From: a virus
Taxonomy: Duplodnaviria > Heunggongvirae > Uroviricota > Caudoviricetes
Direction: 5' to 3' (one strand)
IMG/VR virus record: IMGVR_UViG_2693429621_000007
DNA length: 13,028 nt
Shown: positions 6,001 to 12,000 of the stretch, in pieces
How the letters are laid out: every line of letters begins with the position of its first letter
Numbering within the stretch: the first letter of the stretch is position 1
Position numbers: made by a program

Positions 6001-9000
6001 TTGACGGGCAGGGGAATCCGGTCAGCGTGGAGGTCCAGTCCGTCACCGACGGCGTGAAGGTAAAAGTGAGCCGTGTTCCTGACGGTGTTGCTGAATACAG
6101 CGTGTGGGGGCTGAAGCTGCCGACGCTGCACCAGCGATTGTTCCGCTGCGTGAGTATCCGTGAGAACGACGACGGCACGTATGCCATCACCGCCGTGCAG
6201 CATGTGCCGGAAAAAGAAGCCATCGTGGATAACGGGGCGCACTTTGACGGCGACCAGAGCGGCACGGTGAATGGTGTCACGCCGCCAGCGGTGCAGCACC
6301 TGACTGCCGAAGTCACCGCAGACAGCGGGGAATATCAGGTGCTGGCGCGCTGGGACACGCCGAAGGTGGTGAAGGGCGTGAGCTTCCTGCTCCGTCTGAC
6401 CGTAACAGCGGATGACGGCAGTGAGCGGCTGGTCAGCACGGCCCGGACGACGGAAACCACTTACCGCTTCACACAACTGGCGCTGGGGAACTACAGGCTG
6501 ACAGTCCGGGCAGTAAATGCGTGGGGGCAGCAGGGCGATCCGGCGTCGGTATCGTTCCGGATTGCCGCACCGGCAGCGCTGTCGCGGATTGAGCTGACGC
6601 CGGGCTATTTTCAGATAACCGCCACGCCGCATCTTGCGGTTTATGATCCGACGGTACAGTTTGAGTTCTGGTTCTCGGAAAAGCGGATTGCGGATATCAG
6701 GCAGGTTGAAACCACAGCACGCTATCTTGGCACGGCGCTGTACTGGATAGCCGCCAGTATCAATATCAAACCGGGCCATGATTATTACTTTTATATCCGC
6801 AGTGTGAACACCGTTGGCAAATCGGCATTCGTGGAGGCTGTTGGTCAGCCGAGTGATGATGCATCCGGTTATCTGGATTTTTTCAAAGGCGAGATAGGGA
6901 AAACCCATCTGGCTCAGGAGCTGTGGACGCAGATTGATAACGGTCAGCTTGCGCCTGACCTGGCTGAAATCAGGACGTCCATTACGGATGTCAGCAATGA
7001 AATCACGCAGACCGTCAATAAGAAACTGGAAGACCAGAGTGCGGCAATTCAGCAGATACAGAAGGTTCAGGTTGATACAAATAATAACCTGAACAGCATG
7101 TGGGCTGTGAAGCTGCAGCAGATGCAGGACGGACGCCTTTATATCGCGGGTATTGGTGCCGGTATTGAGAACACCCCTGACGGCATGCAGAGTCAGGTGC
7201 TGCTGGCGGCGGACAGGATTGCGATGGTTAATCCTGCGAATGGCAACACAAAACCGATGTTTGTTGGTCAGGGCGATCAGATATTCATGAACGACGTGTT
7301 CCTGAAACGCCTGACGGCCCCCACCATTACCAGCGGTGGAAATCCATCGGCATTTTCCCTGACTCCGGACGGAAAGCTGACCGCTAAAAATGCGGATATC
7401 AGTGGCAGTGTGAATGCGAACGCCGGGACGCTCAACAATGTCACGGTAAATGAAAACTGTACGATTAAGGGCATGCTGGAGGCGACTCAGGTCAGAGGTG
7501 ACTTCGTTAAAGCTGTATCCAAATCATTTCCGAAACAGGCTGGTACGTGGGGTAACACGGAAACACCAAACGGGACGGTTACAGTCACCATAAGCGATGA
7601 TCATAACTTTGACCGCCAGATTATTATTCCGCCCATTATTTTTAACGGTATAGCGTATGACGATCCGGGGAGCGGAAATAACCCAGGAGGCACGCGATAC
7701 ACGGGTTATGGTTTTGAAGTTCGCAAAAACGGCGTATTAATCGCATCCAGAGAAACTAAAGGTGCCATTCCCGGTAGTTACAGTGCAGTTATTGATATGC
7801 CTAGTGGTGGTGGTAGCGTCACTCTGGAGTTTAAGATTTTCCAGAAAGGCAATCAGGGGGCAGGCAATATCACCGACTGTACGGTGATTGTGACCAAAAA
7901 AGCGGCTTCCGGCATCAGTATTCGTTGAAATATTTATAACCCCAATAAATGGCGTCAGGAATGACGCCTTTTTTATTGCAGAAAAGCGAGAGGTAATTAT
8001 GCGTAAAGTTTGTGCAGCCATTTTGTCCGCAGCCATTTGCCTGGCCGTATCCGGTGCGCCTGCATGGGCGTCTGAACATCAGTCCACGCTGAGCGCGGGG
8101 TATCTTCATGCCCGGACCAACGTTCCCGGCAGTGATGATCTGAACGGGATTAACGTGAAATACCGTTATGAGTTTACGGATACGCTGGGGCTGGTGACGT
8201 CATTCAGCTATGCAGGAGACAAGAATCGCCAGCTGACCCGTTACAGCGATACCCGCTGGCATGAAGATTCCGTGCGTAACCGCTGGTTCAGCGTGATGGC
8301 GGGGCCGTCTGTGCGCGTGAATGAATGGTTCAGCGCGTATGCGATGGCGGGTGTGGCTTACAGCCGTGTGTCGACTTTTTCCGGGGATTATATCCGCGTA
8401 ACTGACAATAAGGGGAAAACGCACGATGTGCTGACCGGAAGTGATGACGGTCGCCACAGCAACACGTCTCTGGCGCACTGACGGTTTCATCGTGGGTGTC
8501 GGTTATAAATTCTGATTAGCCAGGTAACACAGTGTTATGACAGCCCGCCGGTTCAGGCGGGCTTTTTTGTGGGGTGAATATGGCAGTAAAGATTTCAGGT
8601 GTACTGAAAGACGGCACAGGAAAACCGGTACAGAACTGCACAATCCAGCTGAAAGCAAAACGTAACAGCACCACGGTGGTGGTGAACACGCTGGCCTCAG
8701 AAAATCCGGATGAAGCCGGGCGTTACAGCATGGACGTTGAGTACGGTCAGTACAGCGTTATTCTGTTGGTGGAAGGATTCCCGCCGTCACATGCCGGGAC
8801 CATCACCGTGTATGAAGATTCCCGACCCGGTACGCTGAATGATTTTCTCGGTGCCATGACGGAGGATGATGCCCGTCCGGAGGCACTGCGCCGTTTTGAG
8901 CTGATGGTGGAAGAGGTGGCGCGTAACGCGTCCGCGGTGGCACAGAACACGGCAGCCGCGAAGAAATCAGCCAGCGATGCCAGCACATCAGCCCGTGAGG

Positions 9001-12000
9001 CGGCAACCCATGCGACTGATGCTGCAGATTCAGCACGTGCAGCCAGCACGTCAGCCGGACAGGCCGCTTCGTCGGCTCAGTCAGCGTCTTCCAGCGCAGG
9101 AACGGCATCAACAAAGGCCACTGAAGCCTCAAAAAGTGCTGCCGCTGCAGAGTCCTCAAAAAGCGCGGCGGCTACCAGTGCCGGTGCGGCGAAAACGTTA
9201 GAAACGAATGCGGCAGCGTCACAACAATCAGCAGCCACTTCTGCATCCACCGCGACCACGAAAGCGTCAGAAGCTGCCACCTCAGCCCGGGATGCGTCGG
9301 CTTCAAAAGAGGCGGCAAAATCATCAGAAACGAACGCATCATCAAGCGCCAGTAGCGCAGCTTCCTCGGCGACGGCGGCTGCAAATTCTGCGAAGGCGGC
9401 CAAAACGTCCGAGACGAACGCCAGGTCTTCTGAAACGGCAGCGGGACAGAGTGCCTCAGCTGCGGCAGGCTCAAAAACAGCGGCTGCGTCGTCTGCCAGC
9501 GCCGCGTCAACAAGTGCCGGGCAGGCCTCAGCCAGTGCCACCGCCGCCGGAAAATCGGCAGAAAGCGCCGCATCATCCGCTTCAACAGCCACAACGAAGG
9601 CTGGCGAAGCCACTGAGCAGGCCACGGCAGCAGCGAGGTCAGCTTCCGCAGCGAAGACATCCGAAACGAACGCGAAAGCGTCGGAAACCCGTGCAGAATC
9701 CTCAAAAACGGCTGCCGCATCGTCCGCCAGTTCGGCGGCGTCATCGGCATCATCGGCGTCTGCTTCAAAAGATGAGGCGACCAGACAGGCGTCAGCAGCG
9801 AAGGGCAGCGCCACGACGGCATCCACGAAGGCGACAGAGGCTGCTGGTAGTGCGACGGCAGCAGCTCAGAGCAAAAGTACGGCGGAATCTGCAGCAACGC
9901 GCGCTGAGACAGCGGCAAAACGGGCAGAGGATATTGCATCCGCCGTGGCGCTTGAGGATGCGAGCACGACGAAAAAGGGGATAGTACAGCTCAGTAGTGC
10001 GACTAACAGCACTTCCGAGTCACTGGCGGCAACACCAAAAGCCGTTAAGGCCGCGTATGACCTGGCTAACGGGAAATACACCGCACAGGATGCAACGACA
10101 GCACAGAAAGGGATAATCCAGCTAAGCAGCGCGACCAACAGCACGTCTGAAACGCTGGCGGCAACGCCAAAGGCAGTAAAAGCAGCCAATGACAATGCTG
10201 AGAAACGTCTGCAGAAAGATCAGAACGGTGCGGATATCCCTGGCAAAGACACCTTTACGAAAAATATTGGTGCCTGCCGTGCCTTCGGTGGGTCAGTAAG
10301 CACAACAACAGGAAACTGGACGACTGCACAGTTTATCGAGTGGCTGGATTCTCAGGGAGCATTTAACCATCCATACTGGATGTGCAAGGGTTCCTGGTCT
10401 TATGGCAATAATAAAATCATTACTGATACTGGCTGCGGTAATATTCATCTCGCCGGAGCTGTCATTGAAGTAATGGGGATAAAGTCAGCGATGACGATCC
10501 GCATTACCACTCCGACCACATCCAGCGGTGGCGGAACAACCAACGCCCAGTTTACCTATATTAATCACGGAACAGATTATTCACCTGGCTGGCGAAGGGA
10601 CTATAACTCCAGAAATAAGCCAACGGCATCAGAGATCGGGGCGCTACCGTCAGGTGGAACAGCAGTATCATCAGTTAATCTGGCTTCAAAAGGTCGGGTA
10701 GCCGCGCTGACAGACAATACGCAGGGGGCAGCAGGTCTTGAGTTATACGAGGTGTATAACAACGGATATCCAACAGCGTATGGAAATATCATTCACCTGA
10801 AAGGGATGACAGCCGTTGGCGAAGGTGAGTTACTCATCGGCTGGAGTGGTACAAGCGGTGCTCATGCTCCGGCATTTATTCGTTCACGACGGGATACGAC
10901 CGACGCAAACTGGTCGCCGTGGGCGCAGCTTTACACCTCGGCTCATCCTCCTGCAGAGTTTTATCCAGTCGGTGCACCAATCCCGTGGCCATCAGATACC
11001 GTTCCGTCTGGTTATGCCCTGATGCAGGGGCAGACTTTTGACAAATCTGCTTACCCGAAACTTGCAGCCGCTTATCCGTCAGGCGTGATCCCTGATATGC
11101 GTGGCTGGACGATTAAGGGCAAGCCCGCCAGTGGTCGTGCCGTATTGTCTCAGGAACAGGATGGCATTAAATCGCACACCCACAGCGCCAGCGCATCCAG
11201 TACGGATTTGGGGACGAAAACCACATCGTCGTTTGATTACGGCACTAAATCCACGAATAACACCGGGGCGCATACGCACAGTCTGAGCGGCTCTACAAGT
11301 TCAGCTGGGGCCCACCAACATAGTCAGACTGGGCCCAGAACGAATAGCGGGAGTCAACCTACTGGAATGTTTCCGGCAGGGAGTACTCAAGTTAGCGGGA
11401 CTAATCAGGTTGGTATCAGTGGCTCATTAACCAGTGGCACCTCCCAATGGGTAGGTAAATCATCTTCAGAAGGAAACCATACACACTCACTGTCCGGCAC
11501 AGCAGCATCTGCGGGTGCACACGCGCATACTGTCGGTATTGGTGCTCATACGCACTCTGTTGCGATTGGTTCACATGGACACACCATCACCGTTAACGCT
11601 GCTGGTAACGCGGAAAACACCGTCAAAAACATCGCATTTAACTATATTGTGAGGCTCGCATAATGGCATTCAGAATGAGTGAACAAGCACGGACCATAAA
11701 AATTTATAACCTGCTGGCCGGAACTAATGAATTTATTGGTGAAGGTGACGCATATATTCCGCCTCATACAGGTCTGCCTGCAAACAGTACCGATATTGCA
11801 CCGCCAGATATTCCGGCTGGTTTCGTGGCTGTTTTCAACAGTGATGAGTCATCGTGGCATCTCGTTGAAGATCATCGGGGTAAAACGGTTTATGACGTGG
11901 CTTCCGGCGACGCGTTATTTATTTCTGAACTCGGCTCATTACCGGAAAATGTCACCTGGTTATCCCCGGAAGGGGAGTTTCAGAAGTGGAACGGCACAGC

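Follow-up and report, generated by a model that had tools for sequence, protein, structure and literature searches.

The stf gene and its domain organization

The stretch analysed here, hereafter referred to as the window, consists of 13,028 nucleotides (nt) from IMG/VR virus record IMGVR_UViG_2693429621_000007 (Caudoviricetes), and the element under study is stf, a side tail fibre gene at 8580..11663 on the plus strand, spanning 1027 codons and a stop. The gene was delineated from the list of open reading frames (ORFs), its translation, and matches to Pfam and the PDB. The frame is open from 8574/8580 to 11663 without an internal stop, and I placed the start at the ATG at 8580 because the predicted N-terminus (MAVKISG) is then the same as in lambda Stf and in PDB entry 9e7m. 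The stf stop codon overlaps the ATG of tfa (11663..12244, plus strand), which encodes a 193-amino-acid protein identified as a tail fibre assembly chaperone by its Caudo_TAP domain (PF02413, 150.2 bits against a cut-off of 22.1, E 4.6e-44). From the evidence described below, this is very probably the intact stf of a lambda-like prophage of Escherichia coli or Shigella, a mosaic of known modules accompanied by its Tfa chaperone.

A Pfam scan of the Stf sequence identified phage_tail_N (PF08400) at residues 1–134, with 239 bits against a cut-off of 26.6 (E 1.4e-71), two stretches of Phage_fiber_2, and the Collar family at residues 798–845; a search of NCBIfam matched no family to Stf or Tfa. Residues 1–94 (8580..8861, plus strand) match the "Tail fiber protein" of PDB entries 9e7m and 9mgh, virion structures that contain the lambda Stf N-terminal domain (E 1.3e-51), and are therefore identified as the N-terminal collar domain. 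In Ur-lambda, the corresponding residues 1–91 form a collar at the junction of gpV and gpM, followed in the published model by a linker (92–101), a proximal coiled coil (102–393), a hinge and a distal part, and a gp37-like receptor-binding domain that binds OmpC (PMC12617516).

The N-terminal domain, the sequence signature of the coiled coil, and the position of the gene in the order J-lom-stf-tfa are those of a lambda-type Stf, this gene order being common to the window, lambda, phage PhiR68_2 and E. coli prophages including that of Z1323. A first-pass annotation, made by reading the window sequence alone, had proposed a side tail fibre with a repetitive shaft, tandem fibre repeats and a tip carrying histidine-any residue-histidine (HxH) motifs. 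All of these are present in the one 1027-codon gene, and the tail-fibre repeat family and gp37-like C-terminal domain that it predicted were both found.

A heptad-repeat rod

The Ala/Ser/Thr-rich shaft occupies residues 100–456 (8877..9947, plus strand) and consists of ∼51 uninterrupted heptads. Between residues 115 and 456 the composition is 38% Ala, 24% Ser and 12% Thr; Pro, Cys, Met, Phe, Trp and Tyr do not occur, and the stretch is free of helix breakers. The identity of the shaft with itself is high at each multiple of seven residues up to 56 (z 7.7–10.8 relative to 500 shuffles), and lowered at all other spacings. Arranged seven to a row, beginning with residue 100, the sequence follows the consensus A-(T/S)-S-A-(T/S)-A-A without a break in phase. 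Ala occupies position 7 in 46 of 46 heptads and position 4 in 33 of 47, so that two Ala columns lie three and four residues apart, as in the core positions of a coiled coil; Ser occupies position 3 in 36 of 47. On this basis the shaft is read as a probable proximal trimeric coiled-coil rod. The recurring (K/A)(T/S)SETNA-like units reported in the first-pass annotation are indeed present, those of the K(T/S)SETNA type corresponding to single heptads at residues 205, 247, 275, 282, 359 and 366; what had been described as low complexity is really a strict heptad array.

A model of residues 95–545 was generated with AlphaFold2 (AF2) from the single sequence as a monomer (predicted template modelling score, pTM, 0.26). 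It is nearly all helix, with a predicted local distance difference test score (pLDDT), averaged over blocks, of ∼66–89 in the helical stretches.

In a four-way protein alignment, the window shaft differs from Ur-lambda Stf (774 amino acids) by a single gap, a block of 105 residues (304–408; 9489..9803, plus strand), or exactly 15 heptads, that lambda lacks. The main Ala run thus comprises 47 heptads here and 32 in lambda, and the shaft would correspond, by this alignment, to the lambda proximal coiled coil (102–393) extended by 15 heptads. The impression that the shaft was longer than that of lambda was therefore correct.

Pfam assigns no domain to residues 135–461, and three additional ORFs lie across the shaft, at 9208–9984 on the plus strand (258 amino acids) and at 9077–9826 and 9172–9939 on the minus strand (249 and 255 amino acids). 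Both observations could be taken to suggest that the region results from a frameshift or an assembly error, or that it is a linker without structure and not a coiled coil. I find this barely credible. The frame is open from an N-terminus identical to that of lambda to a C-terminus identical to those of T4 and lambda, and is conserved across hundreds of genomes and phages. The seven-residue period with its invariant Ala column exists in the stf frame alone; codon position 2 is C in 66% of codons and codon position 1 is G in 49%, as expected of GCN, TCN and ACN codons. The additional ORFs are most likely by-products, as expected of a sequence rich in GCN and TCN, and the lambda equivalent of the shaft has been observed as an extended fibre by cryo-electron tomography (PMC12617516). 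The region is thus in frame, as had been assumed in the initial reading.

Variation in rod length

In order to compare shaft lengths, homologous loci were gathered from IMG/VR and GTDB, and 89 fibre ORFs were scored. An Ala run of the same length, 47 heptads, is found in 78 of these. Other classes of rod have 30 heptads (loci L055 and L081) or 35 heptads (E. ruysiae and relatives), and recent, exact tandem duplications were found in the shafts of two relatives, of 27 nt in L080 (adding nine residues) and of 12 nt in L006 (adding four). Measured between anchor motifs, these two shafts have lengths of 357 and 352, respectively, and are the only real insertions; values of 349 and 351 obtained in the same manner were discarded as artefacts of fuzzy motif matching. 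A separate homologue search with residues 1–492 gave 120 listed matches at 92–98% identity, many of them partial, and is for that reason unsuitable for assessing the diversity of shaft lengths.

The GTDB scan added little diversity, and many of its matches beyond Escherichia and Shigella resemble contamination by lambda DNA. The lambda stf is found on low-coverage contigs, several of ∼48.5 kb, in assemblies from unrelated taxa (L086–L103 and other GTDB loci), for example Pseudomonas, Shewanella, Leeuwenhoekiella, Oceanobacillus, Kitasatospora and Bradyrhizobium. One of these, L086, has the frameshifted 401-codon form of laboratory lambda. Such occurrences look like lambda DNA contamination.

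The exact duplications in L080 and L006, the 315-nt block that separates the window from lambda, and the lineages with 30 and 35 heptads would all be expected if the Ala/Ser/Thr stretch were a slippage-prone contingency tract, providing programmed variation of fibre reach. The DNA of the shaft makes this very unlikely. Tandem Repeats Finder identified only two micro-arrays in stf (9031–9056 and 9736–9757), with 2.1–2.4 copies of 9–13 nt, indicating that the shaft is periodic at the protein level and is not a DNA tandem repeat. The longest exact direct repeat within it is 11 nt, and the degenerate ones are mostly at spacings that are multiples of 21 nt. The mean nt identity among heptad units is 42%, and 45% between adjacent units; the invariant Ala uses all four of its codons and the conserved Ser all six, contrary to what a tract homogenised by slippage would show. 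The sharing of the 47-heptad run by most relatives also argues against a contingency tract.

Shaft length therefore changes by both slippage and recombination, yet rarely, and the shaft is not a hypervariable tract. The proposal that it is a site of length variation by these two routes holds to the extent that real events were found, an in-phase block of 315 nt relative to lambda and the two short duplications, but these are rare and slippage is a weak proposal. Similarly, tandem repetition was found in the protein, with its period of seven, but not in the DNA beyond the two micro-arrays, and a shaft that is longer than that of lambda proved nearly constant among relatives.

Two fibre repeats of probably different ancestry

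The shaft is followed by two Phage_fiber_2 units of 44 residues each. Unit 1 comprises residues 459–502 (9954..10085, plus strand), with a 26-residue core at 467–492 (nt 9978–10055), and continues the lambda-type module upstream of it. Unit 2 comprises residues 503–546 (10086..10217, plus strand), with a core at 511–536 (nt 10110–10187), and continues the Mu S-like module downstream. The PF03406 match has 125.4 bits against a cut-off of 22 (E 6.2e-37) over the two stretches, the best of which is residues 462–502. The first-pass annotation had located the repeated motifs at nt 9974–10056 and 10107–10189, within a few nt of the measured cores.

The two cores differ at 18 of 78 nt, with 14 codons changed synonymously and only two amino acids replaced, so that 24 of 26 residues are kept. 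The nonsynonymous distance (dN) is 0.036 and the synonymous distance (dS) ∼2.3, which is saturated, for a dN/dS of ∼0.015; these were obtained by the LWL85 method, as dS for this pair is undefined under NG86 owing to synonymous saturation. When 18 substitutions were placed at random 20,000 times, there was no case in which at least 24 of the 26 residues were kept. The earlier description of two nearly identical peptides with many synonymous differences is thus accurate, and purifying selection on the fibre-repeat peptide, which it had proposed, is supported. Over the full 132 nt, the two units share only 64% nt identity.

Among 71 complete relatives, 3, 35, 26, 6 and 1 proteins have zero, one, two, three and four copies of the repeat, respectively, with a period of exactly 44 residues. 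The element with real copy-number variation is hence this repeat and not the shaft. In the relatives with three or four copies, the internal units are 97–98% identical in DNA, while the last unit is always divergent (64–68%); unit 1 of the window is 97% identical in nt to unit 1 of these relatives. In E. coli Z1323, the only repeat is a hybrid of the two units, with 11 sites diagnostic of unit 1 in its 5' part and 13 sites diagnostic of unit 2 in its 3' part.

The initial reading implied that the pair arose by tandem duplication in place, followed by silent divergence under purifying selection. The nearly identical cores, their saturated synonymous divergence and the low dN/dS are all consistent with such an origin, and recent tandem duplications of the unit clearly occur in relatives. 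Nonetheless, I consider duplication in place unlikely for this pair: the sequence adjoining unit 1 is of the lambda type, and lambda has that copy only, while unit 2 adjoins Mu S-like sequence that bears its own copy (as in the alignment to PDB entry 5yvq). In addition, where recent duplication is seen, the internal units are almost identical and the last one is always at ∼65%. The pattern better fits two old, separately inherited copies joined by recombination, and the synonymous divergence of the two repeats would probably reflect separate ancestry, as indicated by their different flanking modules, together with purifying selection. The two models overlap in that both involve purifying selection. 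Most simply, the conserved repeat can be read as a homologous joint between upstream and downstream fibre halves, at which unequal crossing-over would add or remove copies.

Mu- and P1-like modules

Residues 539–723 (10194..10748, plus strand) form a module similar to Mu S', matching chain residues 178–362 of PDB entry 8ju3, annotated as tail fiber protein S / S' (E 1.4e-69). The similarity to Mu extends upstream into the fibre repeats, since residues 490–568 align with the Mu tail fibre S of PDB entry 5yvq (E 6e-16). An overlapping module, residues 691–802 (10650..10985, plus strand), was identified with tblastn against phage records and is similar to the variable part (Sv) of P1 and P7 S (69–72% identity), to Gifsy-2 Stf (63%), to phage Goslar (76%) and to Vibrio phages (48%); these residues have no sequence match in the PDB at E values up to 10.

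In view of the homology to Mu and P1, an invertible fibre switch of the Mu G, P1 C or e14 P type was considered, and rejected, as neither a crossover site nor an invertase was found. A pattern search for Gin/Cin/Pin-type crossover sites gave no match in the window with up to three mismatches, and 12245–13028, after tfa, has no ORF and no homology to pin. Some relatives do carry pin downstream, and in both PhiR68_2 and Z1323 a Pin-type serine recombinase follows tfa.

The gp37-type tip and Tfa

The C-terminal part of the protein is homologous to the T4 gp37 tip. Residues 794–1027 match its crystal structure (PDB entry 2XGF, E 9.7e-82), with a BLASTP identity of 65% over 234 residues, and the Collar family (PF07484) was identified at residues 798–845 with 45.6 bits against a cut-off of 24 (E 7e-12). 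In T4 gp37, the collar D10 (residues 811–881 and 1010–1026) has the needle D11 (882–1009) inserted in it, and the needle holds seven iron atoms coordinated by histidines (PMC6957217). Transferring these limits through the 2XGF alignment places the predicted collar at residues 793–864 (10956..11171, plus strand; equivalent to 811–881 of D10), completed by the last 17 residues, 1011–1027 (nt 11610–11660, plus strand). Between these lies the needle, equivalent to D11, at residues 865–1010 (11172..11609, plus strand).

The needle has seven HxH motifs, starting at residues 866, 898, 912, 967, 981, 990 and 999, all seven of which align one-to-one with those of T4. All 14 His of the last 235 residues are within HxH pairs, and none of 20,000 shuffles reached seven motifs, the maximum being five. 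The six motifs listed in the first-pass annotation are all present (residues 896–1002), but a seventh, KSHTHS at 866, had been overlooked. The resemblance to metal-coordinating fibre tips of the T4 gp37 type that it had pointed out is well borne out by the 2XGF match and by the alignment of every HxH. A family of more than 200 receptor-binding tips of the T4/lambda type has been described (PMC9659904).

The segment from the third to the fourth HxH, residues 915–966 (52 residues; 11322..11477, plus strand), is variable. Among 58 relatives with a gp37-type tip, the HxH count is nearly always seven and the flanks of the segment are conserved, but the segment itself falls into 10 unrelated classes, of 32–53 residues. 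The class of the window is found in three of the 58, and among deposited phages it is most similar to gp37 proteins of T4-like phages (including one Mosigvirus record), at ∼60% identity. From this distribution the segment appears to be a swappable cassette, exchanged between conserved needle strands, and by analogy it is putatively the receptor-binding tip of the needle. Nearly all tip classes occur with one and the same Tfa class (at least 85% identity), suggesting that the chaperone probably recognises a conserved part of the tip.

Two further observations concern tfa. A candidate small RNA, RF02111 "IS009" in Rfam, was identified at 12006–12204 on the plus strand (218 bits against a gathering threshold of 117), wholly inside the tfa coding sequence. 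In a few relatives (H16, H17 and some IMG/VR loci), tfa is replaced after stf by a gene for a 296-residue protein, which has HxH-like motifs at its C-terminus and is annotated in RefSeq as "macro domain-containing" in H16 and H17.

Distribution and comparison with known fibres

Some match to the gene was found in 5174 of 5426 complete E. coli genomes, and in 636 of these the match extends over 80% or more of its length. The top E. coli matches, at 96.6–98.2% identity, carry annotations as prophage tail fibre proteins. Among deposited phages, seven reach the same coverage (e.g., PhiR68_2, at 98.2%), and one IMG/VR locus, L040, encodes a protein that is identical over all 1027 residues. Judged by sequence, the allele is an ordinary protein of an already described kind, every module of which is known.

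The closest characterised system is the Stf of Ur-lambda, with which the window protein shares gene position, a nearly identical N-terminal collar, the heptad register, the first fibre repeat, and a gp37-like collar and needle with an identical C-terminal end. The two differ in the rod, which is 105 residues (15 heptads) shorter in lambda, and in the number of fibre repeats, one in lambda and two here. The middle part of the lambda protein, from the fibre repeat to the gp37-like collar, is replaced here by the Mu S'-like and P1 Sv-like modules. Lambda also has eight HxH motifs rather than seven, with a segment of another class between the third and fourth.

The similarity to T4 gp37 lies in the last 234 residues, the fold signature of the collar, and the seven HxH on seven iron sites, and does not extend to the remainder of the protein. 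The segment between the third and fourth HxH is ∼30 residues in T4 against 52 here, and the two cannot be aligned; the chaperones are gp38 and gp57A in T4, and a lambda-type Tfa here. Mu S and S' (PDB entries 5yvq and 8ju3) resemble the fibre repeat and residues 539–723, and P1/P7 S resembles residues 691–802 in its Sv part, at ∼70% identity. Unlike those systems, the window lacks an invertible segment, a gix- or cix-like site and an invertase, and the N-terminus and tip come from other fibre families.

The Stf proteins of PhiR68_2 and of E. coli prophages (e.g., Z1323HEC0016) have the same module order, at 96–98% nt identity. The PhiR68_2 protein agrees with that of the window in its rod and two repeats, but has a different segment between the third and fourth HxH; that of Z1323 has the same tip segment as the window, but the one hybrid fibre repeat instead of two.

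Prophage context

Upstream of the intact stf, positions 1–8481 of the window consist of two lambdoid tail-end regions joined through an IS21-like insertion sequence (IS), ISEc62. The first tail-end copy includes a J' fragment (19–2877), lom (2945–3544), and an N-terminal stf fragment of 122 codons (3566–3934), belonging to a different allele and cut by the IS at ∼3920. The IS carries istA (4021–5193) and istB (from 5190). The latter is truncated near residue 231, and an in-frame fusion at ∼5883 links it to a second C-terminal fragment of J, which extends to 7928. A truncated lom (7999–8481) then precedes the intact stf and tfa of the second copy.

A roughly similar arrangement, with the IS inside J, was found in only one complete E. 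coli genome, VTB97379v, at 91.7% identity. On either side of the IS, the window and the L040 locus (UViG_2698536366_000004) are 99.9% identical. Where the window has positions 4163–5883, L040 (2188–2304) has a scaffold gap of Ns at the IS site and 114 nt more of J. The fusion of istB to J thus reflects either a genuine loss of ∼270 nt or a join introduced during assembly.

A strong terminator-like hairpin, with seven G-C pairs out of eight and a run of T after it, lies at 8542–8563 on the plus strand, between lom and stf and just 5' of the stf start. It is also conserved 5' of the stf fragment of the first copy (∼3530–3555). The end of the window after tfa, 12245–13028, is AT-rich (32–40% GC), has no contained ORF of at least 60 codons, and shows no similarity to the post-tfa region of three relatives.

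A model for the fibre and its implications

The Stf of Ur-lambda is a homotrimer, present in four fibres per virion, that speeds adsorption by means of an outer-membrane receptor (PMC12617516). By analogy to Ur-lambda and T4, three Stf chains would form one fibre here, fixed to the tail by the collar domain at the gpV/gpM junction. The coiled coil would hold the distal half off the tail, ∼15–16 nm further than in lambda (105 residues at ∼0.15 nm each). In the needle, the HxH histidines of the three chains would bind a row of metal ions, as in T4, and so staple it, while the 52-residue variable segment at its far end may bind a host surface receptor, which in characterised relatives is OmpC and/or lipopolysaccharide (LPS). 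Such binding by the tip would make the reversible phase of adsorption faster, ahead of the binding of J to its own receptor, and Tfa would help the tip to fold. On this view the gene is a mosaic built by recombination, with the fibre repeat as a joint and the segment between the third and fourth HxH as a cassette.

What the sequence and its alignments establish is the order of the domains, the rod of heptads, the alignment of seven HxH motifs and the footprints of recombination. A number of points nevertheless weigh against this model. The receptor, the trimeric state and the metal content of this allele are carried over by homology. The AF2 monomer folds its helices back on themselves, and so would support helicity only; the fold-backs are an artefact of modelling a single chain, and AlphaFold3 on full-length Stf has the same problem (PMC12617516). 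The fibre-repeat region was modelled at a pLDDT of only ∼45–57. The insertions in L080 and L006 are out of heptad phase, so that rod length does not follow whole heptads strictly. Finally, with its IS21-like element and truncated J and lom, the prophage is rearranged and probably defective, and stf may be a relic that is not expressed or assembled.

The A-x-S-A-x-x-A rod could also represent a distinct trimeric coiled coil with an Ala/Ser core, acting as a ruler that is set mostly in whole-heptad blocks and that determines host range. I regard this idea as a long shot. If it is true, the observed classes of 30, 32, 35 and 47 heptads would be settings of the ruler, and rod length would affect host range alongside the tip cassette; the 15 extra heptads (∼15–16 nm) would then allow the tip to reach an outer-membrane receptor through O-antigen or capsule layers too thick for the lambda fibre.

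The value of this analysis is mainly that of a correct annotation, for a further mosaic member of a fibre family that has been studied well and in which each module has a solved or modelled relative. For the engineering of host range, it suggests that the 44-residue fibre repeat may serve as a natural splice point between fibre halves, that the 52-residue segment between the third and fourth HxH may serve as a natural swap cassette needing no matching change of Tfa, and that rod length comes in discrete classes.

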